Shown: piece after piece, positions 1-42,259 of the stretch | Numbering within the stretch: position 1 is the first letter of the stretch | Layout: each line of letters opens with the position of its first letter | Virus record (IMG/VR): IMGVR_UViG_3300007048_000001 | Strand: one strand, 5' to 3' | Length of the DNA: 42,259 nucleotides | Origin: a virus | Made by a program: the position numbers and the translations under genes | Notes under the pieces: model-generated | Database searches by the model: none | What the model was told of the DNA's origin: nothing | What the model saw: the letters and a program-made list of their open reading frames with translations, nothing else

Positions 1-1131
1 GATGGTTCAGGGCGACAGAACATCGGTAGTGATGGCATCCCAGATGAAGGTGGCATCGCCGTGTCGCGTCCTTTGCACTGGCCCTGTAGTGCAAATGCCA
101 ATTCAAGGACCGTCGGCGCCCCCGTCGTTGACAGTGTCTTCTCTAACCTGAGCAGCACAGCACTCAACAGCAACCACACAACACCTGCTGACTTGCCGAG
201 TGCAGTGTGGCATGTTTGCGCCAGTCGTGGTGATACGTTCTTCCCGGTCCCTACATGGACCAGAGCGCACCTCGCTTTTCTGAGCCTCGCCCATTCACAA
301 GCGCTGCTCGGTGGAGATGGCAGGCCGATCAGTGGTGCGATCACCAAGGCGGCGTGGATGGACACACAGCCCTATGCCCCGAAGGGCAACAACCAAGGCC
401 GGGAAGATATCAACAAACCAAGCCTGCAGTTCACGCACCCCGGCATCCGTGGCGCCACGGAAGGTGGTCACGCGGGCAAGGCCTATCGCGCGTTCACTGG
501 TGCGGGATATACCAGCAGTACAAACGGCCTCGTCGCCGCTGTTGAACAGACCACACACAATGGCCAACCGAGTGGTGTCGCTGATGTGAATGGGAATCAG
601 TGGGACATTGCGCCAGGGTTAACAACTGCTCTTGGTGGGACGGTCACCGCCTCGAGCTATCGCCTCTATTCAGAGACCAAGGCATGGTCTGCCGTCAGTA
701 ATGTCGCCGATATCCTCAACAGCCAAGACCTAGTCCAGCTTGCCGCCAACACCGGAGACAATGGGATCTGGTGGATTAGTCTCGGCGCTTTATGGGCCCA
801 CTTGGTCCCCGCCGCCGGCGGGACATGGCATCCCACCAATTCATTCACTGGTGGCAATGCATCCCAGACCACACGCAAGGCGATGACTGACTGCCTCATC
901 CCGAGGGAAGCCGGCACCGACGCCGATGAGGCGAGCCAACCCGACAGTACGAATCTCTTTGGTGGGGATGGGTTTCGCCATCGAACAACCACTGCCACCA
1001 TGCCGTTGTTTGGTGGGATGTGGGCTAGGACCTACAGCGCTGGGATCTGCAGCCTCAGTGTTGCAGTCAACTATGGCACACAACAGGATGCGGCCGGCAC
1101 CCGTGCAGTGCACCTCGTCGCGAGCAGCTGA
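1..1131 (+). CDS. Receptor-binding tail protein, paralog 2, C-terminal part (same gene as 41717..42259, joined through the contig overlap)
   Basis: The frame is open from base 1 (DGSGRQNIGSDGIPDEGGIAVSRPLHWPCSA...) and in phase with the ORF starting at ATG 41717. It is homologous along its length to the 538-aa product of 40101..41717 (GIAVSRPLHWPCSA, CASRGDTFFP.PTWTRAHLA, VDVNGNQWD.APGL, GGDGFR, YSAG). Confidence 0.85.
   Translation, partial: DGSGRQNIGSDGIPDEGGIAVSRPLHWPCSANANSRTVGAPVVDSVFSNLSSTALNSNHTTPADLPSAVWHVCASRGDTFFPVPTWTRAHLAFLSLAHSQALLGGDGRPISGAITKAAWMDTQPYAPKGNNQGREDINKPSLQFTHPGIRGATEGGHAGKAYRAFTGAGYTSSTNGLVAAVEQTTHNGQPSGVADVNGNQWDIAPGLTTALGGTVTASSYRLYSETKAWSAVSNVADILNSQDLVQLAANTGDNGIWWISLGALWAHLVPAAGGTWHPTNSFTGGNASQTTRKAMTDCLIPREAGTDADEASQPDSTNLFGGDGFRHRTTTATMPLFGGMWARTYSAGICSLSVAVNYGTQQDAAGTRAVHLVASS
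49..89 (+). repeat. 41-bp block 40/41 identical to 40632..40672 in the paralogous tail gene
   Basis: ggtggcatcgccgtGtcgcgtcctttgcactggccctgtag versus ggtggcatcgccgtCtcgcgtcctttgcactggccctgtag. The flanking DNA of the two paralogs is much more diverged. Confidence 0.9.
72..95. repeat. 24-bp palindrome TTTGCACT-GGCCCTGT-AGTGCAAA (perfect 8-bp arms, 8-bp spacer) inside the tail gene; also present as the duplicate at 42232..42255
   Basis: Read directly: the reverse complement of TTTGCACT is AGTGCAAA. Paralog 1 keeps only the left arm (40655..40662). Confidence 0.85.
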
Positions 1132-1325: not shown

Positions 1326-1531
1326 TGCAATGCACCGTCGCTGCGATCAATACATCCTCCAATTTCGTTCTTGTAATCGTGGGGCTGCATCTTGCAGCGA
1401 TGGTGATCGTCAACATCACACCCACTCCTAAGGATGATGAGATGATGAGTGGCTACACACGATTCCTCGTGAAGCTCTATCGTTTGATTGAAGTCGCTGC
1501 AGGTGTCATTGGTCCATTGGTGAAGCGGTGA
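1322..1531 (+). CDS. Small membrane protein, holin candidate
   Basis: 69 aa with hydrophobic segment FVLVIVGLHLAAMVIV and a hydrophobic C-terminal stretch. The start overlaps the previous ORF. The 3' end overlaps the 3' end of the convergent peptidase gene by 26 nt. Confidence 0.45.
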   Translation: MMQCTVAAINTSSNFVLVIVGLHLAAMVIVNITPTPKDDEMMSGYTRFLVKLYRLIEVAAGVIGPLVKR

Positions 1532-2195: not shown

Positions 2196-2224
2196 AGGAT
2201 GAGATCAACAGGCATGGACCCATC

Positions 2225-2491
2225 ATGGCAGACCTCCATGACGAACTCGAAGACCTACACGTTCTTACTGTACGCAAGGCACGTGAACTGCTGGAAGATC
2301 CGGACTGCACTTCAAGGGATATCCAAGCTGCGATTGCCCTGCTCAAGCAAAACAACATCACCGCTGACCTAAGTGGTGGTGTCACCCCTGAGATGAAGGC
2401 ACGCACCATGAGCAAACTTGACTTCTCTGCCCTCAAGGCAAAGAGCAACGGGAAGGTCATCCCAATCGTTGGACAGGACCAAGTGAGCTAA
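2225..2491 (+). CDS. Small helical protein, possible terminase small subunit
   Basis: 88 aa, charged and helical. The stretch ARELLEDPDCTSRDIQAAIALLKQNNIT resembles small terminase (DNA maturase A) proteins of T7-like phages from memory. It abuts the terL stop with a 4-nt convergent overlap. The + frame has coding-like composition, whereas the antisense ORF 2179..2460 is a Ser/Arg-rich shadow. Confidence 0.4.
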   Translation: MADLHDELEDLHVLTVRKARELLEDPDCTSRDIQAAIALLKQNNITADLSGGVTPEMKARTMSKLDFSALKAKSNGKVIPIVGQDQVS

Positions 2492-4314: not shown

Positions 4315-4651
4315 TCAATGCCCTGCGAAATACAGCGCGAACTGCCTCTCGTCCATCCTCTCGATGTTCCCATGTCTTGATGATAACATCAGATACATGC
4401 TCTGAGTCAACACCGAGTTTGTTCATGCATCGTCCAATCTGTGTTAACCACTCCTCAGAATCTTTCTTGCTATAATCTCCAGTGACTGCTTCCATGATAC
4501 ACCCTGCATACCATGCAACCTGTAGCTTATAAATGAGACCACGCTTATTACGTGCTCTTTCTTTTTCTCTCTCTATCATCGCATCCGTCATGATTGGACT
4601 CGTCATGGCTTCATTGTAGTGTGGGTTATCTGGATAAAAAAGATCTACCAT
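4289..4651 (-). CDS. Hypothetical protein
   Basis: 120-aa ORF with balanced composition. It overlaps the terL start by 26 nt and the upstream ORF by 7 nt, so it is translationally coupled. The DNA is visibly more AT-rich than the structural genes. Confidence 0.6.
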   Translation of the reverse strand: MVDLFYPDNPHYNEAMTSPIMTDAMIEREKERARNKRGLIYKLQVAWYAGCIMEAVTGDYSKKDSEEWLTQIGRCMNKLGVDSEHVSDVIIKTWEHREDGREAVRAVFRRALNDLGTTTF

Positions 4652-5037
4652 TCCTCGTCACTCTTCAATCTTCCAGGACATGCATCCTCACCAAGATGCT
4701 TCACCAAGATCTCCCTACCAATAAGACTAGGCCTCATCTGATATGCATTCCTGATGTGCGGATGCCTCCTCACCTCGATCAATGGCCTCGTAAAAGATGG
4801 GTTCACATACTTCCCATCCCTGTAATACGTACGACAACGTAACCCAGATATAATCCTGTTACATGCACCATCGTCAAATACTACCCCTTCCTCGTTCATC
4901 ATCGCCTCGCATAATGCAGGCCTGTTGTCTATCCCATTGGCAATGTACAACAAGGCCTCGATGATGGAACTCTGCAATACATTCCCATTGTTGGGACGTA
5001 GCTCAGTTAGCAATCTTGCAACAGATAATGATGTCAT
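4645..5037 (-). CDS. Hypothetical protein
   Basis: 130-aa ORF in the same - strand gene train. No motif recognised. Confidence 0.6.
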   Translation of the reverse strand: MTSLSVARLLTELRPNNGNVLQSSIIEALLYIANGIDNRPALCEAMMNEEGVVFDDGACNRIISGLRCRTYYRDGKYVNPSFTRPLIEVRRHPHIRNAYQMRPSLIGREILVKHLGEDACPGRLKSDEEW

Positions 5038-5045
5038 TTCTTTTG

Positions 5046-5342
5046 TTAGACGGGTACTGCATAGTCATCCTGGTCATCATTGCCCTCATTGAAATGCCTC
5101 CTCGCTCGTGGAATCCCTCTGCCTAGCTCTTTGTTTGGCATTAAAATGGCTGGCGTTTGAATAGGAGGCACAAGTAAATCAATGCCCTTTAGTGCTGCCC
5201 TCGCTGCCTGAACACTCTCTGTAACCTCTTCTGATTCCGCCATCGCTAACCTCTCTAGCTGATGAATATGGTCCAATAATGCGCATCTTGTTGCTGCTAC
5301 CTGCTTTGTTGTCAGGTACACCTTGTGTAGCTGTGTCTTCAT
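5046..5342 (-). CDS. Hypothetical protein (acidic C-terminus)
   Basis: 98-aa ORF. Its start overlaps the stop of the upstream ORF (4-nt overlap at 5339..5342). Confidence 0.55.
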   Translation of the reverse strand: MKTQLHKVYLTTKQVAATRCALLDHIHQLERLAMAESEEVTESVQAARAALKGIDLLVPPIQTPAILMPNKELGRGIPRARRHFNEGNDDQDDYAVPV

Positions 5343-5635
5343 AATACGGTTGCTTTGAATAGTTCAAGGTTGCGATCTAGCTGGTCCAAACTCTCTTCCG
5401 CACTCCTCATCTCTCTCTCAAACTCTTTCGCTAACTCCTTATCTCCTCGCCTCTCCGCTGCTTCCCAACCACGCATCGCACGGCGATAAAGATTCTCCAC
5501 GCTCTGACATGTCTTGCTGTGCCTGTCTAGCCACAGCTCTCTCTTGCTTGCTTCCTTGTAACCCAACCACATGATGATTGCCCAGAATAGACTCGGTAGA
5601 ATTAACAATGATCCCATTAAAATGTTGCTGAGCAT
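5339..5635 (-). CDS. Hypothetical membrane-anchored protein
   Basis: 98 aa with an N-terminal hydrophobic helix (GSLLILPSLFWAIIMWLGY) and a charged coiled tail. It is the first gene of the - strand arm, next to the noncoding hub. Confidence 0.55.
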   Translation of the reverse strand: MLSNILMGSLLILPSLFWAIIMWLGYKEASKRELWLDRHSKTCQSVENLYRRAMRGWEAAERRGDKELAKEFEREMRSAEESLDQLDRNLELFKATVL

Positions 5636-6264
5636 AGGCTCTTCGCTGATGCTTCCTTACTCTGCCGGGAGTCAGCAGCAGCTGCTGTTGTACCTTTATA
5701 TTCCTTAATTTACCTTCTTAATTAAGACCTTAAACCTAGCACATCTAGATCTTACCACGCTTGTCAACCCCCTATAACCCCCCTTCCAGAACCTCAATCA
5801 AGACCACCACATCGTCTCAATCCTTTACAGCGCTAAGCCCTACTCATCCTTGCTCAACCTTAGCTCAGCGTTAATCCAGCACTGCCTATCACGTACTCTG
5901 ATACTTGGCGAGTAGCTTTGAGAATCCAGTGGGGCACTACGATCTCCCACTCTTCGGACCTCTAGCGTACGCTTGTGGTACAGCAGCGTATTGAGAATCA
6001 CCGCCTCTCAAAAGCTGAGATCGCAGTCCCTGACTGGATTCTTCCTTCCACCACCTCTGCGAATGATTCTTCAGCCCGGTTGCCTAGGGGAACGCCTGGC
6101 CCGGCGGCGAGCCCGGCCCCCTAGGGCCAAGGGCGACGCCGTAGCCGGGCAATCGAAGCCGATTTCTAGGGCTGGGATACCCCCCTGTCCGGTTTTTTCG
6201 AAGGGCTATGGGGGGTCTTGATCGCACGCACGCTGAGAGATTGACCACCTCATCATGCGAGCAA

Positions 6265-6283
6265 TTTCACAAGCATTGTGAAA
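6265..6283. promoter_or_regulatory. Perfect palindrome TTTCACAA-GCA-TTGTGAAA, operator-like site
   Basis: Read directly: 8-bp perfect arms with a 3-bp centre. Confidence 0.5.
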
Positions 6284-6308
6284 ACTCTCGTAATGTGAGT
6301 AAAAGATC

Positions 6309-6322
6309 AAAAAAAAAAAAAA
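6309..6322. repeat. A14 homopolymer
   Basis: 14 consecutive A at 6309-6322, followed by more A-rich sequence (gaaccaaaaaataat). Confidence 0.95.
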
Positions 6323-6336
6323 GAACCAAAAAATAA

Positions 6337-6356
6337 TCTAGAAGATTCTAGAAGAT
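6337..6356. repeat. Tandem 10-bp repeat TCTAGAAGAT x2
   Basis: Read directly at 6337-6346 and 6347-6356. Confidence 0.95.
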
Positions 6357-6374
6357 TTTATAAATCTCTAGCTT

Positions 6375-6550
6375 GCGAAGGTTCTAGGTTCCTTTCAAAG
6401 CTGAAGCGAAGGTTACTTAGTGTAAATCCCGAGTTCCTTTAGAAGTTAATACTATCCACTTTAAAAGTTATTTAGTTTCTACTTTCAAGGTTATCGAAAC
6501 CAGATATAACAGCGGAAGTATCTCTTAAAGCGGAAGGTAACTTTCTAAGA
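6375..6550. repeat. Iteron-like array: about six CTTTnAAAG-type motifs plus four GCG(G)AAGGT motifs in AT-rich DNA
   Basis: cCTTTCAAAG (6391), cCTTTAGAAG (6436), aCTTTAAAAG (6458), aCTTTCAAGG (6481), CTCTTAAAG (6522), aCTTTCTAAG (6540). Several spacings are about 22 bp. GCGAAGGTT occurs at 6375 and 6406, and GCGGAAG at 6511 and 6530. Confidence 0.6.
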
Positions 6551-6597
6551 GAGAGAGACAGCCTTTATCCTAGGGGATACGGCTGTCTCTCTCTTAG
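6545..6597. other. 53-nt extended hairpin (about 22 bp of pairing in three segments)
   Basis: 6551-6563 pairs with 6581-6593 (13 bp). 6545-6548 pairs with 6594-6597 after a 2-nt bulge. The inner stem tatcc/ggata (6566-6570 with 6575-6579) closes loop tagg. Confidence 0.8.
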
Positions 6598-6604
6598 AGG
6601 TAGC

Positions 6605-6633
6605 TTAATAAATCCAAGAAGAAACTCTATGAT
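6605..6633 (+). promoter_or_regulatory. Candidate sigma70-type promoter directed toward the RNAP gene
   Basis: -35 TTAATA (6605-6610), 17-nt spacer, -10 TATGAT (6628-6633), just downstream of the large hairpin. Confidence 0.35.
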
Positions 6634-6701
6634 TCGCGCGGGGAGAAAACGCGTGTATGCGAGCTATCTATGCGTGGTATGCTGTTAGGGATTGCAGGAG
6701 A

Positions 6702-6733
6702 GGGTTTTGTGGGGTTTGGGGATTGCCGGTGGG
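6702..6733 (+). other. G-run cluster (G3-N6-G4-N3-G4-N9-G3), possible G-quadruplex motif
   Basis: Read directly. It is part of a strongly G/T-rich + strand stretch at 6660-6860. Confidence 0.4.
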
Positions 6734-6780
6734 TTTTTGTGAGTCGGCTGTTGTTGGTTTTGGCTGGATTCCGCGTCTGC

Positions 6781-6807
6781 GGGGTCTGTGGGGCGCTGGG
6801 AGGCGGG
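6781..6807 (+). other. Canonical G-quadruplex motif GGGG-tctgt-GGGG-cgct-GGG-aggc-GGG
   Basis: Four G-runs with loops of 5, 4 and 4 nt, immediately upstream of or within the start region of the RNAP ORF. Confidence 0.45.
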
Positions 6808-6815
6808 TCTAGTGC

Positions 6816-9296
6816 TTGGCGGGTAGGATTCCCCATTCAGCCCGGCGGAGGCGCCTTGCAGGTCATCCTGAGTGGGCTGAGGGCTTAAGGGCGGTGCTGA
6901 GGTACAGCGAGCAAGCCCGTGGTGCTGGGCCCTTATCGGCGCAGTACCGCCAGGAGGCCCGTGAGCGGGAACGCGCGGGCTGGGCGGCGGTCAACATGCG
7001 ATCTCGCCTCCAGCAGCTGGGGCGTGAATCCTGCACGGAATACGGCCGTGTTCTATTCACTCGCTATGCCGAACAAGTCACCATCGCGCTCGGCTTATTA
7101 CTTGAAGAATTAGTTGTTAATCCTACTAAGCCAGGTCCACATTTCGCGGCGTGGCCTTTACTTCTTCATGTCACCAAACGTGGGCCGCGGTCTCTTGCGG
7201 CGCTTTCACTCGATGTTGTCATTGGTCGAATCCAGCAACGTCTTGGTGAAAAGACCATTGCTCGTAAGATTGGTGTCTGTCTACAGGGTGAGCTCAGGGC
7301 TGGGAAGGTCGAGGAGAAAAGCGCTGAACTCGTTGCCCTGATTCGTAAGCGCAGCTCAGTTCGAGTGTTCAATACAAGTCAGATCCTCAAGGATCTTGAT
7401 CTCAATTGCAGCAGCTGGACGATAGCCGACAGGCAAGAAGTCGGGCATCTGATGTTGGAATTGATCGTGGGCAATACTGATCTTTTACGACGGACGCGTT
7501 CTGGGCTTGAGCCAACTGAAGCCACGCTTGAATTGATCAAGGCCAATCCACCTCGGCCCACCTCCACGAGGCGGTTACCCATGCTGGTGCCGCCTCGTGA
7601 TTGGCATGGGATGATCGGGGGTGGGCACCTCGACAACATCCTCCCTCTTGTTCGTAGCCAGGGGGGCCTCGATCGTTCTCACCTCACCCCCAAGACACTG
7701 TCTCCTGTTTTGGGGTTGGTGAATGGGTTGCAGCGTCAGCAGTTGCGGGTTGACCCGGTCATGGTTGGACTCCAGCGCGCTGCTTGGGATTGCGATCTCC
7801 GTGGTCTTTTCCCCGTCACGCGAGATCCACTCACGGTGCCCCCCAAGCCCTTGCTTCAGCGTGGTGGGGGGAAGGAGTACAGGCTTTGGCGAGAGGCGTG
7901 CCGCAAAGCGCACTACGACCGTACCCAGCATGCTTTCTTGCGGCAGTCCATTGATCGGTCGATCTGTATGGCGGAAGAGCTCGCGGGATTGCCGTTGTGG
8001 TTTTCGTACTGTCTCGACTTTCGTGGTCGGGTCTATACCAGCAATCGTCTGGTCACAAATCAGGGGCCTGATTGGGAGAAGGCTGCTGTGAACTTCACCC
8101 AATCCGAGCCCACGCCCCAGCCTAGCGGTCTTGACTGGATGCTCAAGGCCGCGGCCGGCCATTTCGGCATTCGTGACTCCTGGATGGCCAGGTTGGATTG
8201 GGCCCAAGCGCAAATCCCGGCGATGCGTGCGGTGGCGGCGGCACCGTTTGATCGGCTTGAGTTATGGCGTGATGCCAAGGATCCTTGGCAGTACCTGCAG
8301 TTATGCCAGGCCATCAGCCATCAGCTGGACCACCCGGGTGCACCGAGCACGGTGCCGATCAGGTTTGACCAGACCTGCAGTGGTCTTGGCATTTCAGCGG
8401 CGTTGATGCGTGATCATCGGCTTGCTGAACTCACCAATGTGGTGGGCACCACCCGGCAGGACATCTATACGCATCTCGCGGGGTTATTGCAAGAGCAGCT
8501 ACGGCTTGATCTGAGCAATGGGAATGATTATCGCCAGCGTCATGCTTCGACATGGCTTGATTTTGGCATCAATCGTTCTTTATGCAAGATGCCTGTTATT
8601 GCCGCGATGTACGGCGCTGGGCGGGGTGGTTTCGTTGATTATTTCGCATCGGAGTTGGAAGAGCGTGAAGCGGGCCGATTACCAGTGCAAGTATGGCAAA
8701 CGGCGTATATCTCCCCTGCTCGTTACATGGCGAACATGATGTTTCGTCTTCTTAGGCAGGAATTGCGTTCATGTTTTGTGCTGCAGCTCTGGTTACGTGT
8801 CGTGACCAAACAGGTGTTGTCCTGCAAGCGGGTGCTGCGGTGGTGTTCACCGAGTGGCTTCCCACTTCGGTTTGATGCGGCGTTTGATGCCAGGACGCGT
8901 GTCCGCACCTTGACCAAAGGGGCGAGGAGGTGGAAGGCATGGACTGATCATGCTGAGGTGGGTGAGCGTTCAGCGCGGGACACCAACCGGTCGATCACTG
9001 CTAACACGGTCCATTCGTTTGATGCGGCGTTGTGTCATGGGGTGATTGGCCGTTGTTTGGATGGTGGGGTGCAGCTCTTGACGAATCATGACTGCTTCGC
9101 CGTAACGCCTGCTCATGCTGGCTGGCTGCACGGTATGCTTCACGACGAGCTGAGGCGATTGTATGCGATGGATTGGTTGACAGATGTGGTCGGCCAAGTT
9201 GCGCGTCATTCTGGGTTAGGGGGTCTCCCGGCGCCACCCTTGGTGGGCACGCTTGATCCAGCCAAGATTGGCAACAATCCTCATTGTTTTTGTTGA
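6816..9296 (+). CDS. Single-subunit DNA-directed RNA polymerase (T7 gp1-like); start codon uncertain (TTG 6816, GTG 6894 or ATG 6996)
   Basis: Motif A is PIRFDQTCSGLGISAALMRD (compare T7 DGSCSGIQH). Motif B is RSLCKMPVIAAMYGAG (compare T7 RSVTKRSVMTLAYGS). Motif C is LLTNHDCFAV (compare T7 HDSFG). The length is about 770-826 aa. Confidence 0.93.
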   Translation: MAGRIPHSARRRRLAGHPEWAEGLRAVLRYSEQARGAGPLSAQYRQEARERERAGWAAVNMRSRLQQLGRESCTEYGRVLFTRYAEQVTIALGLLLEELVVNPTKPGPHFAAWPLLLHVTKRGPRSLAALSLDVVIGRIQQRLGEKTIARKIGVCLQGELRAGKVEEKSAELVALIRKRSSVRVFNTSQILKDLDLNCSSWTIADRQEVGHLMLELIVGNTDLLRRTRSGLEPTEATLELIKANPPRPTSTRRLPMLVPPRDWHGMIGGGHLDNILPLVRSQGGLDRSHLTPKTLSPVLGLVNGLQRQQLRVDPVMVGLQRAAWDCDLRGLFPVTRDPLTVPPKPLLQRGGGKEYRLWREACRKAHYDRTQHAFLRQSIDRSICMAEELAGLPLWFSYCLDFRGRVYTSNRLVTNQGPDWEKAAVNFTQSEPTPQPSGLDWMLKAAAGHFGIRDSWMARLDWAQAQIPAMRAVAAAPFDRLELWRDAKDPWQYLQLCQAISHQLDHPGAPSTVPIRFDQTCSGLGISAALMRDHRLAELTNVVGTTRQDIYTHLAGLLQEQLRLDLSNGNDYRQRHASTWLDFGINRSLCKMPVIAAMYGAGRGGFVDYFASELEEREAGRLPVQVWQTAYISPARYMANMMFRLLRQELRSCFVLQLWLRVVTKQVLSCKRVLRWCSPSGFPLRFDAAFDARTRVRTLTKGARRWKAWTDHAEVGERSARDTNRSITANTVHSFDAALCHGVIGRCLDGGVQLLTNHDCFAVTPAHAGWLHGMLHDELRRLYAMDWLTDVVGQVARHSGLGGLPAPPLVGTLDPAKIGNNPHCFC

Positions 9297-9329
9297 CTAG
9301 TTAGATTGTTCTTGTCCTGCTGACTTGTT

Positions 9330-10037
9330 ATGGCAAAGCAACTCTGTGTATCACCTGTTGGTGAAGCGTTATGGGCGAAGTTGTTTCAGCCTGACTTTGG
9401 GTTTGACAAGAATGGTCGTCGTTATTGGTCGATCGACCTTCTTTTAGATACAGGAAGCGATGAGTGCATTGCATTCGTCGATCAACTCGAGCGTATTTTT
9501 GCCGAGATCCATGGGGCCAATGCCAAGGCTGCGCAACGTGGGTGGCCCTTTGCTGATGAGGTCGACAAGAACAACGTCCTCACGGGGCGTTATCGGTTCA
9601 GGTTTAAGCGAAGTGAAACGACGACTCGTGGGATGATCATGGCGGCCCCGGTGGTCGTTGACGCCAAGCGCCAGTTGTGGCGAGAGGATGTTCTGATTGG
9701 CAATGGGTCGCGGATCAAGGTTGCCTTCAGCCCGTGGGGCTGGCCAGGCCAGCGGCCTGGTGAGCGTGGGCTAAGTCTGAATCTTGAGTCCGTCCAAGTG
9801 CTTGACCTGGTCGAGTATGAACGTTTGGACCCGATCAGTGGATTTTCTGAAGAGGAAGGGTTCACGATTGAGCCTTATGGCAGTGACTCTCCTGAAGCGA
9901 TTCCTCTTGATGCCCCACAGGCCATGAGCATTGCTGAGCGTTTGAGGCAAAGGGCGGCCCCGCCACAGAAGGACTTACCGACGCTGGTGGCCACCATGCC
10001 CCCCGGGGCGTTAGGGGAAGAGGAAATCCCCTTTTGA
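9330..10037 (+). CDS. Single-stranded DNA-binding protein (T7 gp2.5-like)
   Basis: 235 aa. The N-terminus MAKQLCVSPVGEALWAKLFQPDFG parallels T7 gp2.5 MAKKIFTSALGTAEPYAYIAKPDYG. It contains GSRIKVAFSPWGW...LSLNLESVQVLDL and ends in an acidic tail with an aromatic last residue (GEEEIPF), as in gp2.5. Confidence 0.8.
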   Translation: MAKQLCVSPVGEALWAKLFQPDFGFDKNGRRYWSIDLLLDTGSDECIAFVDQLERIFAEIHGANAKAAQRGWPFADEVDKNNVLTGRYRFRFKRSETTTRGMIMAAPVVVDAKRQLWREDVLIGNGSRIKVAFSPWGWPGQRPGERGLSLNLESVQVLDLVEYERLDPISGFSEEEGFTIEPYGSDSPEAIPLDAPQAMSIAERLRQRAAPPQKDLPTLVATMPPGALGEEEIPF

Positions 10038-10414
10038 CCTTGCAATTGGCCGAGATCAGATTGCAAGTCCCGCTTCAGCCAAAAGATCGCCCCCGTGCCA
10101 GTACAAAGGATGGAGTCCTCCGTTCTCATCGAAACCCCAAGTATGTTGCCTGGATGAAGAAGGCCCGTGCTCTTCTCCAAAAGCATTGGGTGGGGCCTCT
10201 TTTGACGGGGAAGACCCTTATTAGTGTCCGGATGATGTTTTATGGGCCTGGTCGTTCAGATCTAGATAACCTCGTTGGGGCTGTCTTGGATGCAGGGACG
10301 GGCATTATCTGGGTTGATGACCGGGTGACGATTGTCAGGTATGTTGAGGCTAGCTGGAAACAGAAGCCCATCAAGGATCAATCCATTTATCTAGGTATTA
10401 TCTACGATGGCTAA
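10034..10414 (+). CDS. RusA-family Holliday junction resolvase
   Basis: 126 aa. The pattern RPR...K.Y..W...A (KDRPRASTKDG...NPKYVAWMKKA) and the motif SDLDNLVGAVLDAGTGIIWVDDRVTIV match the RusA catalytic Asp cluster. The start overlaps the SSB stop. Confidence 0.75.
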   Translation: MTLQLAEIRLQVPLQPKDRPRASTKDGVLRSHRNPKYVAWMKKARALLQKHWVGPLLTGKTLISVRMMFYGPGRSDLDNLVGAVLDAGTGIIWVDDRVTIVRYVEASWKQKPIKDQSIYLGIIYDG

Positions 10415-10679
10415 TCCACTAGAGAGCACGGCCCAAGATTTCATTGCCCGAAGCATGAAAGCGGGTGAGGATCTATTTGTGGTCAGGGTTAGTGCCCTTG
10501 AGGAAATGCAACACTTGGCGAGGGAAACTCTTTTAACAGCGGAGTGCGAGAGCAGAGAGGCCTACGTGGCAGGGTACATAGAGGCGCTAGGCCATATTCT
10601 TCAGGCCGTTTATCATATGCAGAACAAGGCCAGACGGAGAGGCCGGGCGGGCTTTGTGGAGTTCGATTGCCCAGAATGA
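10407..10679 (+). CDS. Hypothetical protein
   Basis: 90-aa ORF with balanced composition, overlapping its neighbours at both ends. Confidence 0.6.
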   Translation: MANPLESTAQDFIARSMKAGEDLFVVRVSALEEMQHLARETLLTAECESREAYVAGYIEALGHILQAVYHMQNKARRRGRAGFVEFDCPE

Positions 10680-10754
10680 TGACTGACGATGAGTTGACAC
10701 CAGAGCAATGGCGCGCTTACGTGCAGCAGCTGCAGAACGAGATGTGGTTCAGTA

Positions 10755-10970
10755 GTGCTGAAGCGGGTTCTCTCGACAGAAGGGCGACAGGCCCTTCTCG
10801 AGCGGGGGTTGTTGACGGGGAAGTGGTCGACCCTGCAGTTCAACAAGCAAGGGTTAGAGGTGACGCTACCGACGGTCGTGTTCTTGCGCGACCACCCTGA
10901 GTTTCATGATGTGTCCTTCCGTGACCTACGTGCTTATCATCGGTTCCACGTGTTAAGACGACAAGAATGA
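10755..10970 (+). CDS. Hypothetical protein; the 5' boundary is problematic (see the frameshift finding for 10676..10970)
   Basis: The frame looks coding-like from about 10770 (EGRQALLERGLLTGKWSTLQFNKQGLEVTLPTVVFLRDHPEF). Its stop overlaps the next ATG (ATGA at 10967). The only in-frame start is GTG 10755. Confidence 0.5.
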   Translation: MLKRVLSTEGRQALLERGLLTGKWSTLQFNKQGLEVTLPTVVFLRDHPEFHDVSFRDLRAYHRFHVLRRQE

Positions 10971-11185
10971 CTCAGCTTTCTACTAGTCAAGTTGCGTTGC
11001 GCTATGGCTTTAGCACGTCCACCTTACGAAGGTGGAGGATGCGAGGTGTGGGTCCAAGGTTCACGGCCATCAAGAGGGGTCCGTATCACAAGACGCATCT
11101 TTATGCCATGAGGGATCTTCTTGCTTGGGAACGCGAGTTTGACATTAAGCCAATACGCGATACACCATCCACAGATCTTAAGTAA
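10967..11185 (+). CDS. Helix-turn-helix DNA-binding protein (excisionase/AlpA/MerR-like HTH)
   Basis: 72 aa. LSTSQVALRYGFSTSTLRRWRMRGVGPRF...YAMRDLLAW fits the HTH_17-type pattern (lt..eaA..lgvs..tl.rW...G.gP ... y...dl..W). Confidence 0.6.
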   Translation: MTQLSTSQVALRYGFSTSTLRRWRMRGVGPRFTAIKRGPYHKTHLYAMRDLLAWEREFDIKPIRDTPSTDLK

Positions 11186-12450
11186 TGACTGACTCACTCA
11201 TGACGACACCACGCATTGATTGGACTGCTGTTGAGCGCAACGGCGTTTACTACAACTTCAAGGGCGTCACCGCTGAAGGGCTCACGCTCGCTGACCGTGG
11301 CTGGCGTCCACAGGTCGTGGGGGTTGATAAGCCTGGAGATTACCGGGTCAAGTTGTTTGCCGGTACCTCCGGCATGGAAGAAGGCGATGTCCTAGAGGTC
11401 CAGCTTCGAGAGGCGCGTCTTGAGTTCGTCTGTGAAGCGGATGGTTTGCTGCAGGCCGGGTTTGCTGATAGCAGCGGCTTCCATGCACTCTTGGCCCAGC
11501 CACGCCCAGAGAGCTCATACGGGGGGGCAGGGGCCCCCACCGGCATGATTGATGCCTGCCTCGAGGGCACCTTTAGTACTGAGATCATCGATGGGGGTGA
11601 GTTCGGTGGCAAGTGCGAAGGGGACTTCCCTGACCCACCTGAATGGATGGGCGAGGGAGTGCGCGTCTTTATCACACCAGAGCCCTACGTCTCCGGGGGT
11701 GGGACGAGCTTACGTGTTGTCTGCCCTAATGCCTCACAGAAGGTCCTAGGGCGGCTCAGGCACCTACGCATCAACGGCGTCTGGATGGGATGGATGCCCT
11801 ATAGCTACAAGCGCAGCCGCCTTGACTTGTACTTGATGCCAGATCCGCGTGATGCAGATCAGATCCGTGACTACGACGGTGCACTGATCCCCAATGAAGC
11901 GCCGCCGATGCGCGACACCTACAACCTGCGCCCATTCTTTTACAAGTACATCCCTGGTGCGCGCCCCTATCGTAACTGGACGGGCGAAGCAGCGAAGATC
12001 TACGGCCCTTGGCGGGAAGCGGTCTATGAATGGCAGCGCTACAGCAATTTAGGCACTACCTACGGTCAGTGGAAGCTGTATCAGGAGGCCGCCGCTCGGG
12101 ACTATGTAGCCGCAAAGAAGAAGTCTGATGCAGCTGAGCAGATTTATCGCCGGCGCCCACCAGCCTATGCGGACTACTTGATTGAGCCTTTTGCCGAGGA
12201 GACCAAGAACGAAAAACGCTGGGGTGCTGTTTACCGTTTACGGAATGAAGCGCAGGCTTGCGTAAAAGGGGCTGACAAGGCCCAGGCAATGGCGGACTAC
12301 ATCATGGATGGTGCAGAGCCCACCCCAGAGCGCCCGGAGGGCTCTCCTGGCCTTCGGGGGTGCTATGCAGCAAGAGACAAGTGTGATCAGATCTTAATCG
12401 GCTTTGAAGACAAATACCGCGACCAGATCACTGCCTATTTCTCGATGTAG
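11185..12450 (+). CDS. Hypothetical protein, 421 aa
   Basis: Long ORF with coding-like composition, and its start overlaps the upstream stop. No motif recognised, and no polymerase, primase or helicase signature seen by eye. Confidence 0.7.
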   Translation: MTDSLMTTPRIDWTAVERNGVYYNFKGVTAEGLTLADRGWRPQVVGVDKPGDYRVKLFAGTSGMEEGDVLEVQLREARLEFVCEADGLLQAGFADSSGFHALLAQPRPESSYGGAGAPTGMIDACLEGTFSTEIIDGGEFGGKCEGDFPDPPEWMGEGVRVFITPEPYVSGGGTSLRVVCPNASQKVLGRLRHLRINGVWMGWMPYSYKRSRLDLYLMPDPRDADQIRDYDGALIPNEAPPMRDTYNLRPFFYKYIPGARPYRNWTGEAAKIYGPWREAVYEWQRYSNLGTTYGQWKLYQEAAARDYVAAKKKSDAAEQIYRRRPPAYADYLIEPFAEETKNEKRWGAVYRLRNEAQACVKGADKAQAMADYIMDGAEPTPERPEGSPGLRGCYAARDKCDQILIGFEDKYRDQITAYFSM

Positions 12451-37763: not shown

Positions 37764-37792
37764 TTGACACTCACTCTGACGCGCGCCATACT
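37764..37792 (+). promoter_or_regulatory. Strong sigma70-type promoter for the recombinase gene
   Basis: -35 TTGACA (37764-37769), exactly 17-nt spacer, -10 CATACT (37787-37792). GAGGAG lies upstream of ATG 37816. Confidence 0.6.
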
Positions 37793-37815: not shown

Positions 37816-38388
37816 ATGACACGCTCAATCGGTTACGCCAGAGTCTCCACCGTCCACCAAGACAGGGCCGGCCAAGTCGCGGCGCTCAAAGCCGCCGGAT
37901 GCTCAAAGGTCTTTGATGAAACGATCTCCAGCTGCATCTCTGATAGCGACCGCCCAGAACTGCAAAGAGCCCTCAAAGAACTCAGGGCTGGCGATGAACT
38001 GGTGCTGGCCAAGCTCGATCGCCTAGGCCGCACGCAAGTGGAAGTGATCAACCGCCTGCATGACCTGCAATCCAACGGCATCGACGTCCGCACCCTCGAT
38101 GGCCTGATCAACACGCGTGCACTTGGCAAGATGGCCCCGCTCATGATCGGCATGCTGACGGGTCTGGCGGAAATCGAACGTGAACTCACCCGTGAACGCA
38201 CGCTTGAGTCCATTGCGCACCGCAGAGCGACAGGAGGCGACTTGGGTGGACGCCGCAAGAGCTACACCCCAGAACAAGAAACCATGGTGATGCGACTGCA
38301 CAAAGCAGGTCAATCTTTGCGCATGATAGCAAGGGAAGTGGGTCTGAGCCACAGCGTTGTCTCGCGACTCGTCCATAGCCATGGCTAA
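37816..38388 (+). CDS. Small serine recombinase, resolvase/invertase family (Hin/Gin/Cin-like architecture)
   Basis: 190 aa from ATG 37816. N-terminal SIGYARVSTVHQD carries the catalytic Ser. Other family motifs are DELVLAKLDRLGRT, GLAEIERELTRERT and GGRRKSYTPEQ. The C-terminal HTH reads GQSLRMIAREVGLSHSVVSRLV. It aligns colinearly with Hin from memory. Confidence 0.9.
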   Translation: MTRSIGYARVSTVHQDRAGQVAALKAAGCSKVFDETISSCISDSDRPELQRALKELRAGDELVLAKLDRLGRTQVEVINRLHDLQSNGIDVRTLDGLINTRALGKMAPLMIGMLTGLAEIERELTRERTLESIAHRRATGGDLGGRRKSYTPEQETMVMRLHKAGQSLRMIAREVGLSHSVVSRLVHSHG

Positions 38389-38409
38389 GCTGCCCCCAGC
38401 GGACCGGCC

Positions 38410-38432
38410 GGGCCCTTCGGGGCCCTTTTTAT
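38410..38432 (+). terminator. Rho-independent terminator after the recombinase gene
   Basis: GGGCCC-TTCG-GGGCCC (6-bp GC stem with a UUCG tetraloop) followed by TTTTTAT. Confidence 0.7.
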
Positions 38433-38469: not shown

Positions 38470-39249
38470 ATGGCAACCAGAACGCCACTTGCCTACAACC
38501 AGTACGTCGGCACGACGACTGCTAGGTCCAGCTTCCCAGTGACGTTCCCGTACTTATGGCGTGCTCACGTCAAGGTCTACACCGGCTATGACCTGGTCAA
38601 GAGGACAGGGACCGAGCTGACTGAAGGGACTGACTACACATGGGCTGACAACACAACCATCCAAACAACAGATGACCTAGTACTTGGCACCACGTTAACG
38701 ATCGTTCGCGAGACCCCAGATAATGCACCCTTGGTTGCTTGGCAAGATGGGTCAAATCTTTTGGCGGTTGACTTGAACACGAGTGTTCAGCAGAACTTGT
38801 ATGTCTTCCAAGAAGAAAGAGATGCGAATGTCGCTGCGGTCGACAAGCTAGCTGCCACAGCAACAACAGCGAAAAACGCAGCGGCCGAATCAATGGCGGC
38901 ATCCGCCAGATCAGCAGAGGCAGCAGCAGAGGCAGCAACGGCCACGGCAGCAGCAGAAACCGCAGCGGATAAGGCCAATGATGCTGTGGCTGTGGCAAGA
39001 CAAGAAGCGGGCCAGGTCGCTGCGACAGCAGCGAATGCACTAGCAGTGGCTACTGCAGCGGTCGCCCCCATCTCGCTGTTGCAGGTGCTTGAACCGATGG
39101 CGATTCTTTCTAACCGCTTTGATGGCATCGGCAGCCCGGGTGAGATGCCCTTTGGCGTGGGCCCGGTCGCGCCATCTGGGGTCACGTTTTCAGGTATCAG
39201 CCAGCGGGACTATTATCCTATGCATCTGAAGTCAGGGAGTTTCTGCTGA
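38470..39249 (+). CDS. Tail fibre protein with T7 gp17-like N-terminal tail-attachment domain
   Basis: 259 aa. The N-terminus YNQYVGTTTARSSFPVTFPYLWRAHVKVYTGYD...LTEGTDYTW fits the T7 tail fibre N-terminal domain pattern. An Ala-rich coiled segment follows, then a C-terminal module GIGSPGEMPFGVGP...DYYPMHLKSGSFC. Confidence 0.85.
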   Translation: MATRTPLAYNQYVGTTTARSSFPVTFPYLWRAHVKVYTGYDLVKRTGTELTEGTDYTWADNTTIQTTDDLVLGTTLTIVRETPDNAPLVAWQDGSNLLAVDLNTSVQQNLYVFQEERDANVAAVDKLAATATTAKNAAAESMAASARSAEAAAEAATATAAAETAADKANDAVAVARQEAGQVAATAANALAVATAAVAPISLLQVLEPMAILSNRFDGIGSPGEMPFGVGPVAPSGVTFSGISQRDYYPMHLKSGSFC

Positions 39250-39455
39250 TGGGCCAATTCGGCTCAATCATCCCGGGGCTAGCTATCCCTGAGCATGATC
39301 ATGTAACCTTGGACCCTCCCACGCTACCCACGACAATCACTTACCGTGCGGGTGGTGCGATGGGAGACATCGTGGCAGTGCTGACCTTGACTTACGTCGC
39401 CTTCGACTTAGAGACCATCTCGATCTTTAGAGGAGACCCCACGGCACAACCATGA
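39249..39455 (+). CDS. Small protein following fibre 1 (assembly factor or adaptor candidate)
   Basis: 68-aa ORF, translationally coupled at both ends (TGATG and ATGA overlaps). Confidence 0.5.
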   Translation: MGQFGSIIPGLAIPEHDHVTLDPPTLPTTITYRAGGAMGDIVAVLTLTYVAFDLETISIFRGDPTAQP

Positions 39456-39823
39456 CGACCTACACCTACGACCCGACCAGCGGGGGCCTCATCCCCCAAG
39501 CACAGCGCACGATTGAGGTCACCATCAATGGGATTGACGTCAATGCTGTCGTCGGTGCACAAGGCCCGAAAGGGGATGATGGTGCGAAGGGGGACAAAGG
39601 AGACGCCGGTGCGACCGGTGCGCAAGGCCCACCTGGTTCGACTGGTTCACGTTGGCTTGATGAAGAAGAGGCGATTGTTCGTAATGGTGCTCTTTCCATC
39701 GGGCAGCAAGGAACCATCCCCTTCGGGGTTGGCCCCCATGGGTTAACTGGGGTTGTGTCCTTCCGATCAGTCGGTGTTGACAGGTATTATCCAAAGCATG
39801 TTGGTTCTGCAAGCTTTATGTGA
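39452..39823 (+). CDS. Short collagen-like fibre protein carrying the same C-terminal module as fibre 1
   Basis: 123 aa. It has Gly-X-Y repeats (GAQGPKGDDGAKGDKGDAGATGAQGPPGSTG) and a C-terminal SIGQQGTIPFGVGP...DRYYPKHVGSASFM. Confidence 0.75.
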   Translation: MTTYTYDPTSGGLIPQAQRTIEVTINGIDVNAVVGAQGPKGDDGAKGDKGDAGATGAQGPPGSTGSRWLDEEEAIVRNGALSIGQQGTIPFGVGPHGLTGVVSFRSVGVDRYYPKHVGSASFM

Positions 39824-40104
39824 TGACTGTTTTTCGTTACTACAAAGCTGATGCCGAGCAAGTGCTAGGCCTGCACTTCCCCACTAGTCCAGGGGATGAT
39901 GAGGCGCCTCCTTTCACGTTCGTTGCATTGCATAATGACAAGGACCCCGACGCGAATGGCAGTGATGGGCTCAACTATTTTGGTGCACATGGTGATGATG
40001 GTGATGTAATCGATACTTGGGCAGCCACACAACCTCTAGTGCCAATTGACAAGAGTGAAGTCTTGGCACCGATCACCTTCCACCCGCACCCCTTCGAGTC
40101 ATGA
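39823..40104 (+). CDS. Small acidic protein following fibre 2 (assembly factor or adaptor candidate)
   Basis: 93 aa from ATG 39823 (the track starts at GTG 39820). It is coupled to both neighbours. Confidence 0.5.
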   Translation: MTVFRYYKADAEQVLGLHFPTSPGDDEAPPFTFVALHNDKDPDANGSDGLNYFGAHGDDGDVIDTWAATQPLVPIDKSEVLAPITFHPHPFES

Positions 40105-41717
40105 CATTGCTGTTGGTCAAGGAGACATTTCGTGGCCCCCGTAGTATCGGCCACATCGAGGCTGGTATCCAGAACGAGTGGTATGGCTATCGCTCTGACT
40201 GGATCTACACCATTGGGTTGGCCGGCATGTACGGCTTCGGGGTGGGGTGTTGCCCGTCTGAGCTGCTGCCTGATGGCTTTGCACCGCTTAGCCCTGGCAC
40301 GCTGGATCCAACCAGGAGGCACCCGCACTTCGGTAATTACATCCATGTGCCGAGTGCATCGATTGTGTGCTACCTGCCAAAGCACCGCATCCGGCTTAAC
40401 GGGCAGTCATCAACGCATCACCCATACCAAACCCTAAGGGTGGTCATCTCTGACAATGACACTGACCACCAACTGGCACGGATGTTCCAGGACAAGAACA
40501 AGGAACTAGCCGGGGTCTTCGTTGATAAGTATCAGATCAGCAATGGCAAGGACGATGGCTCGGGTCTACCGAACCATGCCGAGGTCACTGGTGGCCTACC
40601 AGGCCCTGCCCCGGGTGGTGAACCGCAGACGGGTGGCATCGCCGTCTCGCGTCCTTTGCACTGGCCCTGTAGCGCCAGCCTTGCTACCGCGACTAGCCAA
40701 TCTAGTCTCATTATCAACAGCACGATCGCCAATCTGACCAGCACAACCCTCAACAGCAGTAACACGTCAGCCCCATCTGCAAGCTCTGCTGGGATCTGGA
40801 CCGCATGCGCAAGTCGTGGTGATACATTCTTCCCAATCCCAACCTGGACGCGTGCGCACCTGGCTTACTTGAGCGTCGCGCATTCGCAGGCTTTACAAGA
40901 TCCATCTGTCAGTACTGGTGCGGCACTGCCTGGTGCTACAGACAAAGCGGCATGGATGGACGTTCAGCCTTACGGACCCAAGGGCAACAACAACAGTGGG
41001 TCAGATGTCAACAAGACAAGCCTGCAGTTCGCCCGTGTTGGCATTGAAGGGGCAACAACTACTGGGTTTGCTGGTACCACCTCGCGTGCCTTCACCGGTG
41101 CAGCACACATCAATGGCACCCCAGCTATTGAGCACACCACCCACAATGGGCAACTCAGTGGCATTGTCGACGTCAATGGGAATCAATGGGACTTGGCGCC
41201 TGGCCTAAGTAGCGTCTCGCCTGCAGCTCAAGCTGGCTACCGCCTCTACCCACCCACTTTGGCTTGGTCTGCTGTGAGCGCAGTGGACGACATCACTGGT
41301 GCTACTGGTGTGATCAGCCTGATAGCTAATACAGCAGACAATGGGATCTGGTGGACGAATACCGCCGCAGAATGGCGACATATCCAACCTGTCGGTAATG
41401 GGCCCTATCACCAAACCTCTAGCTTCCTTGCTCAAAGCATTACCGCTGCAGCAAGGGCATCAAGACGCGCCATGACCGATTGCCTACTGCCACGTGAAAA
41501 TGGTGCACGAGCGGACGAAGCATCAGAAGCAGTCTCTCGCAACAACTACGGAGGAGATGGATTTAGATACGTGGTCTTCGCGAATGTCATCCCAATGTAT
41601 GGTGGCAGGTGGTCCAATACCTACAGTGCCGGGGTGTTCTGCACTAATATCGCAAACACGGTCACGAGCGTCGCCAACAGTCATGGCCTGCGTTCTGTGA
41701 ACTTAGTCACGGCCTAA
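40101..41717 (+). CDS. Receptor-binding tail protein, paralog 1 (N-terminal shared module, C-terminal lectin-like domain suspected)
   Basis: 538 aa. The N-terminal TIGLAGMYGFGVGCC...GNYIHVPSASIVCYLPKH is homologous to the fibre C-terminal modules. The C-terminal half has CASRGDTFFPIPTWTRAHLAYL, VDVNGNQWDLAPG, YGGRWSNTYSAG and HGLRSV, reminiscent of C-type-lectin-fold (FGE/DUF1566-like) domains. Confidence 0.8.
   Translation: MTLLLVKETFRGPRSIGHIEAGIQNEWYGYRSDWIYTIGLAGMYGFGVGCCPSELLPDGFAPLSPGTLDPTRRHPHFGNYIHVPSASIVCYLPKHRIRLNGQSSTHHPYQTLRVVISDNDTDHQLARMFQDKNKELAGVFVDKYQISNGKDDGSGLPNHAEVTGGLPGPAPGGEPQTGGIAVSRPLHWPCSASLATATSQSSLIINSTIANLTSTTLNSSNTSAPSASSAGIWTACASRGDTFFPIPTWTRAHLAYLSVAHSQALQDPSVSTGAALPGATDKAAWMDVQPYGPKGNNNSGSDVNKTSLQFARVGIEGATTTGFAGTTSRAFTGAAHINGTPAIEHTTHNGQLSGIVDVNGNQWDLAPGLSSVSPAAQAGYRLYPPTLAWSAVSAVDDITGATGVISLIANTADNGIWWTNTAAEWRHIQPVGNGPYHQTSSFLAQSITAAARASRRAMTDCLLPRENGARADEASEAVSRNNYGGDGFRYVVFANVIPMYGGRWSNTYSAGVFCTNIANTVTSVANSHGLRSVNLVTA
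40632..40672 (+). repeat. 41-bp block 40/41 identical to 49..89 (and 42209..42249)
   Basis: See feature 49..89. The single mismatch is at 40646. Confidence 0.9.
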
Positions 41718-42259
41718 TGACCTTGCTGCTCGTTCAAGACAAGATCGTTGGGCCCGGCGGACCAGATGGTATCAAGAGCGAGTGGCGTGGATTTCGTTCC
41801 CAATGGATCTACACCATCGGCCTAGCAGGGCTCGATGGGTTTGGCTTGGGATGCTGCCCGCCTGAGTTATTGCCTGATGGGTTTGCGCCATTGAGTGCTT
41901 GGACCACAGATCCCAGTAGACGCCATCCACACTTTGGCAACTATATTCATCTGCCGAGTGCATCGATCATGTGCTATATCCCGAAGCACTATATGCGATT
42001 GAATATTCCCACTACAGGGATAAGCCTGCCCTACGCAGGCCTTCGTGTCATCATCACCCATAACAAGGGGAATGGGACAATCCCTAGGTGCATGAGGGAT
42101 AACAACAAAGATCTAGCAGGATTCTTTCTTGACAAGTATCAGATCAGTAATGGCAGGGCCGATGGTTCAGGGCGACAGAACATCGGTAGTGATGGCATCC
42201 CAGATGAAGGTGGCATCGCCGTGTCGCGTCCTTTGCACTGGCCCTGTAGTGCAAATGCC
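41717..42259 (+). CDS. Receptor-binding tail protein, paralog 2, N-terminal part (continues at base 100 through the overlap to 1131)
   Basis: ATG 41717 overlaps the TAA of paralog 1 (TAATG). MTLLLVQDKIVGPGGPDGIKSEWRGFRSQWIYTIGLAGLDGFGLGCCPPELLPDGFAPL parallels paralog 1. The frame is open to the window end and in phase with 1..1131. Confidence 0.85.
   Translation, partial: MTLLLVQDKIVGPGGPDGIKSEWRGFRSQWIYTIGLAGLDGFGLGCCPPELLPDGFAPLSAWTTDPSRRHPHFGNYIHLPSASIMCYIPKHYMRLNIPTTGISLPYAGLRVIITHNKGNGTIPRCMRDNNKDLAGFFLDKYQISNGRADGSGRQNIGSDGIPDEGGIAVSRPLHWPCSANA
42161..42259. repeat. Second copy of the 99-bp contig overlap
   Basis: Identical to bases 1-99. Confidence 0.95.

Follow-up and report, generated by a model that had tools for sequence, protein, structure and literature searches.

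Known receptor-binding systems and the present locus

Adapter-mounted or branched receptor-binding systems of podoviruses include those of SP6/K1-5 (an adaptor with two tailspikes), KP32-type phages (an anchor with a second depolymerase), and G7C (gp66/gp63.1). In such systems, a gp17-type anchor without a binding domain carries separately encoded binders, several of which can be present per tail, and the second protein docks by a short N-terminal peptide or a T4 gp10-like branching domain. For the variable proteins (VPs) of diversity-generating retroelements (DGRs), attachment to phage tails is, to our knowledge, poorly understood, even in Bordetella phage BPP-1. Here, we describe a gene cluster in the IMG/VR virus record IMGVR_UViG_3300007048_000001 (the window, 42,259 nucleotides) in which two tail fibres and two paralogous proteins of the DGR variable-protein family share a module of approximately 45-55 aa. 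The fibres carry the module at their extreme C-terminus and the VPs immediately before the lectin body, and we lean toward reading this module as a connector between the two. Precedents exist for DGR variable proteins, for gp17-type anchors, and for adapter-mounted binders. A literature search, incomplete in its coverage, returned no description of the module or of DGRs on T7-like cyanophages; as far as could be found in this way, neither the putative shared connector, with its strict C-terminal form and its link to VPs, nor a T7-like phage in which a second VP gene replaces a DGR seems to have been described.

Positions 1-99 and 42161-42259 of the window are identical, an exact 99-nt terminal overlap that sits within the second paralog and shows the assembly to be a complete circular genome of 42,160 bp. 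Reading of the open reading frames (ORFs) gave, in order, fibre 1 (38470..39249, 259 aa), a 68-aa ORF (39249..39455), the collagen-like fibre 2 (39452..39823, 123 aa), an ORF of 94 or 93 aa (39820/39823..40104), paralog 1 (40101..41717, 538 aa), and paralog 2, whose 524 aa are encoded by 41717..42259 (first 181 codons) and then by 100..1131 (remaining 343 codons). Every gene of the cluster is on the + strand, and stop and start codons overlap at all junctions (TGATG, ATGA, (G)TGATG, ATGA, and TAATG in cluster order). This layout, with its coordinates and overlaps, had been given correctly in the original prediction, which was made from the sequence of the window. That prediction also spoke of seven coupled genes; the coupling stands, but the genes listed number six, or eight when two coupled small ORFs 3' of paralog 2 are included (1131-1325, 64 aa; 1322-1531, 69 aa; both on the + strand). 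The gene identities it had proposed, namely a gp17-like anchor, a collagen-like fibre, and two paralogs, are correct; paralogs 1 and 2 are 53% identical.

Fibre 1, which is encoded in a T7-like genome, shares with T7 gp17 the N-terminal tail-attachment domain (PF03906, Phage_T7_tail; residues 6-146, E=4e-22), followed by an Ala-rich helical shaft and the C-terminal module. In contrast to gp17, it is only 259 aa long and ends in the module instead of a receptor-binding tip; no C-terminal receptor-binding tip domain was found in fibre 1, and PHROG tail-fibre families (470-1450 aa) matched its first ~200 residues only. Homologues of fibre 1 are present in relatives. Fibre 2 begins with a small N-terminal part rich in beta structure, continues with about 10 collagen G-X-Y triplets and a short helix, and ends in the module. 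Its collagen segment (residues 35-65) scored 28.0 bits in Pfam (E=2e-6) with a cut-off of 27.2, and it is accordingly a collagen-like fibre. In an AlphaFold2 (AF2) model of fibre 2 built from 98 sequences, the predicted local distance difference test score (pLDDT) was 52.7; residues 1-34 formed strands with pLDDT 66-79, whereas the module was below 50, so its fold could not be compared with that of the VP module. The two fibres have attachment and shaft parts but lack a tip domain, and a tail-anchor domain is absent from the VPs.

The original prediction had left the receptor-binding body of the paralogs without a name. Structural matches and the loci of relatives established that the paralogs are C-type-lectin-fold VPs of the DGR type and that this genome has lost the accompanying retroelement. 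The AF2 model of paralog 1 (predicted template modelling score 0.82) has the C-type-lectin/FGE-type fold of DGR variable proteins with a C-terminal variable region; residues 50-95 are of high pLDDT and packed on the lectin body, whereas residues 1-47 are below 50. Foldseek searches with this model returned TaqVP of Thermus aquaticus as the best match (5vf4, E=6e-9), followed by Mtd, TvpA of Treponema denticola, and the FGE-fold enzymes PvdO and EgtB. The paralog-family profile also matched TaqVP among PDB sequences (E=1e-3) across the C-terminal half. BPP-1 Mtd, TaqVP, and TvpA are likewise receptor-binding proteins of C-type-lectin fold with a C-terminal variable region; at ~510-540 aa, the VPs described here are closest to TaqVP instead of Mtd. 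The family gave 240 matches, almost all of them 500-540 aa, in marine and freshwater metagenomes.

The comparison covered 47 related IMG/VR loci together with further loci from other assemblies (relatives are numbered L001 onward). Most relatives encode a single VP followed by bAvd, a template repeat (TR), and a reverse transcriptase (RT), which is also the arrangement downstream of the VP gene in the BPP-1 DGR. In L002, the TR and the 3' end of the VP gene (variable region, VR) were aligned over 120 nt, and 20 of the 20 mismatches were located at TR adenines. Adenine-specific TR/VR differences of this kind, also found in BPP-1, are the signature of a DGR. In contrast to the BPP-1 DGR, the window contains no RT, Avd, or TR and carries two VP genes. 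A further link to Mtd comes from the same relative, in which the small module protein corresponding to fibre 2 carries an Mtd_N domain (E=1e-15).

The module shared by fibres and paralogs

The module reads [YF][ST][IV]G.[PA]G...FGVG, a loop, and then Y..H..S[GA]S[FI]. All four copies are on the + strand. Copy 1 (39115..39246) comprises residues ~216-259 of fibre 1 (..IGSPGEMPFGVGP..YYPMHLKSGSFC-stop) and was delimited by hhalign, whereas copy 2 (39689..39820), comprising residues ~80-123 of fibre 2 (..SIGQQGTIPFGVGP..YYPKHVGSASFM-stop), was delimited by BLASTP against the end of fibre 1 and by alignments. Both fibres finish with the module, one residue, and the stop codon, and their ends are clearly related (BLASTP E=4e-10). 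Copy 3 (40200..40364; hhalign) comprises residues 34-88 of paralog 1 (WIYTIGLAGMYGFGVGCC..GNYIHVPSASI) and has many invariant positions. Copy 4 (41804-41968) comprises residues 30-84 of paralog 2. No other element is common to both fibres and both VPs.

A formal alignment of the module gave different answers at two levels: pairwise BLASTP of fibres with paralogs was not significant (E 0.4-9), whereas similarity was detected between profiles, which were built from 38 distinct fibre ends and 122 paralog-family proteins. In hhalign, residues 216-258 of fibre 1 (columns 19-61 of the 62-residue C-terminal query) were placed on paralog residues 34-88; P was 1.4e-4 against the full-length paralog family and 6.7e-5 against its N-terminal 200 residues. 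The score of 32.4 was 7.7 standard deviations above a column-shuffle null (13.4 +/- 2.5, maximum 21.3; none of 200 shuffles reached the observed value), and a reversed-profile control scored 15.8. Searches with hidden Markov models (HMMs) gave enrichment in both directions. In 3,592 ORFs searched with the fibre-module HMM, ~40 matches were to paralog-family proteins and few were decoys; the paralog-module HMM gave 45 weak matches outside its family in 5,811 ORFs, and 35 of these were module-ending proteins. Distant family members bridge the two groups, as in L049 (YSIGTAGQIGFGVS), which matched the fibre-module HMM with E=0.0016. The module was located at both fibre ends and in both paralogs, in the register that had been proposed, and the similarity between fibres and paralogs, as judged from these profile comparisons, is weak but real. 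Searched against PDB sequences, the module profile matched nothing but 16 residues of a designed protein (E=0.0035), a match that was taken as spurious.

It had also been remarked that the pairing of fibre ends and paralogs matches (HLKSGSF with HLPSASI, and HVGSASF with HVPSASI). The quoted strings are present, but they differ at a single L/V position, and no pairing code was detected among relatives. VPs read Y[IVL]H[LIVT]PSASI near-uniformly, and the partner modules vary (HH, HL, DI, HA, and others). A one-to-one correspondence is also not supported, since some relatives have two or three module-ending proteins and a single paralog-type gene.

Distribution of the module and its possible role

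A profile search of 1.84 billion representative proteins returned 91 matches (42-1016 aa), and the match extended to the last residue in ~88 of them. Module-ending proteins finish with S-G-S-[FIYV]-x-stop throughout, across 91 clusters. The carriers are T7-type anchors (202-677 aa), fibres of up to 1,016 aa without recognised domains, small proteins with a collagen or Mtd_N domain, and proteins of 63-99 aa that contain little beyond a shortened module. Among fibre 1 homologues, the module is the most conserved segment (76% identity, compared with 64% for the anchor and 52% for the shaft). When cluster architecture was compared across relatives, 39 distinct module-ending proteins had 2.5 kb or more of sequence downstream, and for 36 of these a VP gene was found within 3 kb. 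Two contigs encode large module-ending fibres without an adjoining VP gene (L075 and L077), and in these the VP cassette is 10-17 kb away. The association of module and VP also occurs on non-T7-like backbones. Synechococcus phage S-SRP02 possesses the anchor, a homologue of the 68-aa ORF, and a second fibre that shares the FNPFTG-type N-terminus; VP and module are both absent from it. Single-chain forms comprising a shaft, an internal module, and a lectin body were found in L047, L049, and BK070120 (a Helicobacter prophage protein).

Some variants of this arrangement were observed among the relatives. In L019, L029, L030, L032, L036, L040, and L042, ORFs of 63-99 aa overlap the VP start and carry the shortened module GWSIGTAG..P[YF]GVG..EPIH.ASGSIM-stop. 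This variant was confined to cassettes without the 93-aa ORF, and most VPs of these loci have SASIM at the corresponding position, which is the sole hint of partner co-variation. L075, L077, L079, and L086 encode a subfamily of 136-775-aa fibres that end in ..YNVID.YSGSVC and do not adjoin a VP gene; in the two contigs of this subfamily with distant VP cassettes, the cassettes have a small module protein of their own. The genes downstream of the L079 fibre resemble S-SRP02 p005-p008. In L052 (Logan DRR151115_2348, 1998-11216), a 1016-aa module-ending protein, a 94-aa ORF, VP, bAvd, and RT are located on a non-T7 backbone, indicating that the cassette moves between phage types. The L052 cassette adjoins a gene for a 443-aa large serine recombinase.

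Because the fibres lack tips, the VPs lack anchors, and the shared module tracks the presence of VPs, we read the module as a connector that mounts VPs on tip-less anchor fibres, and on the present comparative evidence we consider this somewhat probable. Of the roles suggested in the original prediction, a docking interface is the one that co-occurrence with VPs, the lack of both module and VP in S-SRP02, and the tip-less fibres favour. A broader version, in which any VP plugs onto any of several anchors through one homologous ~50-aa connector by homotypic association, is more tentative. On the connector reading itself, module-to-module association would mount VP oligomers at the ends of anchor fibres, the 68-aa and 93-aa proteins might assist mounting as assembly factors or junction parts, and the outcome would be a tail with several distal binders. 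The small module protein and the VP would then represent a two-chain version of the Mtd layout (attachment domain, spacer, and lectin head), and the single-chain proteins of L047, L049, and the Helicobacter prophage may be what the unsplit form looks like. In contrast to Mtd, the attachment domain and the lectin head are here on separate polypeptides, with the module on both. In contrast to the adapter-mounted podovirus systems, the anchor (at its C-terminus) and the binder (N-proximally) share one homologous module; no homology to the docking domains of those systems was found in Pfam, PHROG, or PDB sequences. The module of fibre 2 and VP residues 1-47 were not foldable as AF2 monomers, which fits an element that requires partner chains.

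Several observations weigh against a connector. The similarity between fibres and paralogs is weak enough to escape pairwise detection, and the exhaustive module-profile search retrieved no VP at E<=1e-3. In L079 and L086, the ~4 kb of sequence that follows a module-ending fibre on the contig contains no VP gene. The N-termini of VPs hardly differ between partner-module classes and show little co-variation, and in S-SRP02 the FNPFTG-type N-terminus and the 68-aa ORF function without the module. Gene adjacency and co-occurrence could also reflect the common descent of a mobile cassette instead of binding.

Small elements at the extreme C-terminus of coiled-coil or collagen shafts are known from the T4 fibritin foldon and from collagen-like C-terminal trimerisation domains. 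The module might similarly be a trimerisation or registration element that nucleates the shafts and forms a trimeric neck in the VPs, with fibres and VPs being separate homotrimers. Its constant position at the extreme C-terminus of coiled-coil or collagen shaft proteins, its failure to fold as a monomer in AF2, and its neck-like location between shaft and head in the single-chain forms are all consistent with this role. However, the module has no sequence relation to the foldon, and it also occurs inside VPs and in shaft-less proteins of 63-99 aa; these shaft-less carriers are left unexplained by a foldon-like role. Neither its restriction to VP-bearing genomes or cassettes nor its absence from the fibre of the VP-less S-SRP02 would be accounted for, and fibres 1 and 2 would remain without a tip and the VPs without an attachment. 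We regard a foldon-like element, the main rival reading, as possible but unlikely.

The second role suggested originally was a homology junction, as at the constant/variable boundary of the Mu and P1 fibre genes. The module would in this case be left over from, or be a substrate for, gene fission, fusion, or exchange where shaft and head meet, with no role in assembly. The fibres do end within three residues of the start of the first long strand of the VP body, fused single-chain forms do occur, and the boundary sequence S[GA]SIM is common to both partners in the short-module class. However, the module DNAs of fibres and paralogs share identical runs of only 7-9 nt (16 nt even between the two paralogs); these runs are too short to be a recombination substrate now. 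No direct or inverted DNA repeats link the module copies within the cluster or the genome, and all copies are on one strand. A present-day mechanism of the Mu/P1 kind was accordingly not upheld. A relic would also not be expected to be the most conserved part of fibre 1 or to keep its S-G-S-[FIYV]-x-stop ending so widely, and we consider the junction improbable as the explanation of the module.

Directly upstream of fibre 1, between it and the last internal virion protein gene, is a gene for a 190-aa serine recombinase of the DNA invertase type (37816..38388, + strand; Pfam Resolvase E=6e-32 plus a helix-turn-helix domain; PHROG 125 DNA invertase E=1e-48), which is 42% identical to P2-like phage invertases. 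Serine invertases are likewise encoded next to the fibre genes in Mu/P1 (Gin/Cin, with G/C-segment inversion), p15B (Min), and the R64 shufflon, and the idea of a constant/variable boundary is common to them; the enzyme could be imagined to switch fibre/VP expression here as Gin/Cin do in Mu/P1. In contrast to those systems, no inverted crossover sites flanking oppositely oriented fibre 3' segments or alternative exons were found. Neither inverted repeats nor gix-like sites were found, and with 9 occurrences against 11.7 expected the AAACCNNGGTTT core shows no enrichment. The cluster genes all have one orientation. The invertase gene has a promoter-like site of its own (TTGACA...CATACT, near 37765) and a terminator (GC hairpin and T-run, 38404-38430), and it is missing from the corresponding position in L001 and L002, which have the same cluster. 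The invertase is a self-contained lineage-specific insertion unrelated to the fibre/VP system, and a switch is very improbable. No target sites were found for the invertase in this apparently integrase-less T7-like genome.

It is equally improbable that the resemblance between fibres and paralogs is a chance match of Gly-rich motifs, as the non-significant pairwise BLASTP and the lack of VPs in the exhaustive search might suggest, because the profile score far exceeds the shuffle null, the HMM enrichment is reciprocal, and L049 bridges the two groups.

Loss of the retroelement and the second VP gene

Neither RT nor bAvd was found in the window by tblastn with five diverse RTs and bAvd, and no RT-like ORF bearing YxDD was present. 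No TR cognate to either paralog was found in the window. The former variable region of paralog 1 (41586..41714, + strand; ..YGGRWSNTYSAGVFCTNIANTVTSVANSHGLRSV..) matches the translated TR of L002 and, in DNA alignment, is a diverged copy with no matching TR; that of paralog 2 is located at ~1000-1128 (+ strand). The paralogs thus belong to the VP family in a genome that holds no DGR. Homologues of the 64-aa and 69-aa ORFs located after paralog 2 directly follow the RT gene in L005, L007, L013, and L016, indicating that paralog 2 occupies the bAvd-TR-RT slot. The arrangement in the close relative L001/L004 is identical to that of the window, with paralog 2 in the retroelement slot. Paralogs 1 and 2 were sister clades in a neighbour-joining tree, a grouping that fits their origin from an old tandem duplication. 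With the retroelement gone and a second VP gene present, the phage has two fixed receptor-binding specificities instead of one mutable specificity; in this lineage, mutagenic diversification would have been replaced by a second hard-wired head.

In L045 (IMGVR_UViG_3300044707_000425, 6983-8988), the small post-RT ORFs directly follow the VP gene, and the retroelement has been lost with no second VP. In L018, L024, L032, L034, L036, L041, and L042, the VP gene also appears to lack a recognisable downstream bAvd or RT, as searched by BLAST with one RT/Avd query set. These loci suggest that the retroelement has been lost repeatedly among relatives. Compared with L001, paralog 1 (L001 8001-9614) is 70-72% identical and paralog 2 (L001 9614-11188) is 90% identical, and many of the paralog 1 differences lie in the former variable region. 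This uneven divergence could be attributed to past DGR action or to selection that acted on just one of the heads. The two small ORFs after paralog 2 adjoin a C39-like peptidase gene (1506-2195, minus strand).

The 68-aa ORF belongs to a family with an invariant AIPEHD motif, and its homologues follow fibre 1 in relatives. The S-SRP02 protein p003 is one such homologue (E=4e-33), in a phage without the module. The ORF had no Pfam match, and its sole PHROG match was 26903 (E=2e-8), a family of unknown function; from its gene context, it is best described as a fibre-associated small protein. The 93/94-aa ORF has the motif DPDAN..G.DYFGA..G and is located directly upstream of the VP gene in most relatives (26 homologues in the same position); it had no Pfam or PHROG match. 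The pairs of fibre and small ORF had been likened to pairs of fibre and assembly factor, but no homology of either ORF to Tfa, gp38, or gp57-type proteins was found in Pfam or PHROG, and the position after a fibre gene is the only resemblance.

We also considered whether fibre 1 and the 68-aa ORF together represent a split VP N-terminus, as AIPEHD resembles the VP sequence IP[AK]H (residues 92-95), directly after the module. The best hhalign match of the ORF in the VP did fall at this site, but with a non-significant P=0.46, and joining fibre 1 ends to their own 68-aa ORFs did not extend the alignment. The idea was dropped, and the resemblance is probably a coincidence. No similarity of the 93-aa ORF to the VP, the module, or the 68-aa ORF was detected.

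The window encodes a T7-like gene set, including a single-subunit RNA polymerase, a T7-type terminase, a portal, a gp10A-like capsid protein, and a nozzle protein. Among cultured phages, S-SRP02 (42,143 bp; Autographiviridae) is the nearest relative, with a portal identity of 76%, and the next-ranking portal matches are from uncultured marine phages and cyanopodoviruses. A search for the paralog family in 185,579 species genomes gave a single match, a 37-kb contig binned with an uncultured Synechococcus metagenome-assembled genome. The virus is a T7-like (Autographiviridae) podovirus, probably of Synechococcus, and a cyanobacterial host is likely; the fibre and VP genes form its host-recognition cluster. 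Among GenBank phages, the cluster had no close relative (none by blastn; tblastn with the VP gave two distant prophage-type proteins). The tail fibre of S-SRP02 (L051, MW822601.1, 42-1446) is annotated as two overlapping coding sequences, p001 (42-830) and p002 (772-1446), which look like one fibre gene split by a frameshift or sequencing error.

As a candidate connector, the module is small and sharply defined, and its dozens of natural variants, among them carriers as short as 63 aa and fused single-chain forms, make the question of a connector directly testable. The family also shows that DGRs occur in T7-like podoviruses that encode an RNA polymerase and are common in metagenomes of aquatic origin, and the duplicated fixed VP in the place of the retroelement is a natural experiment in mutable and hard-wired host range. 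In phage engineering, a portable connector would permit lectin heads to be swapped between anchors. The broader connector scheme, if true, would also represent a general, previously undescribed way of mounting hypervariable lectin heads in widespread marine and freshwater phages.

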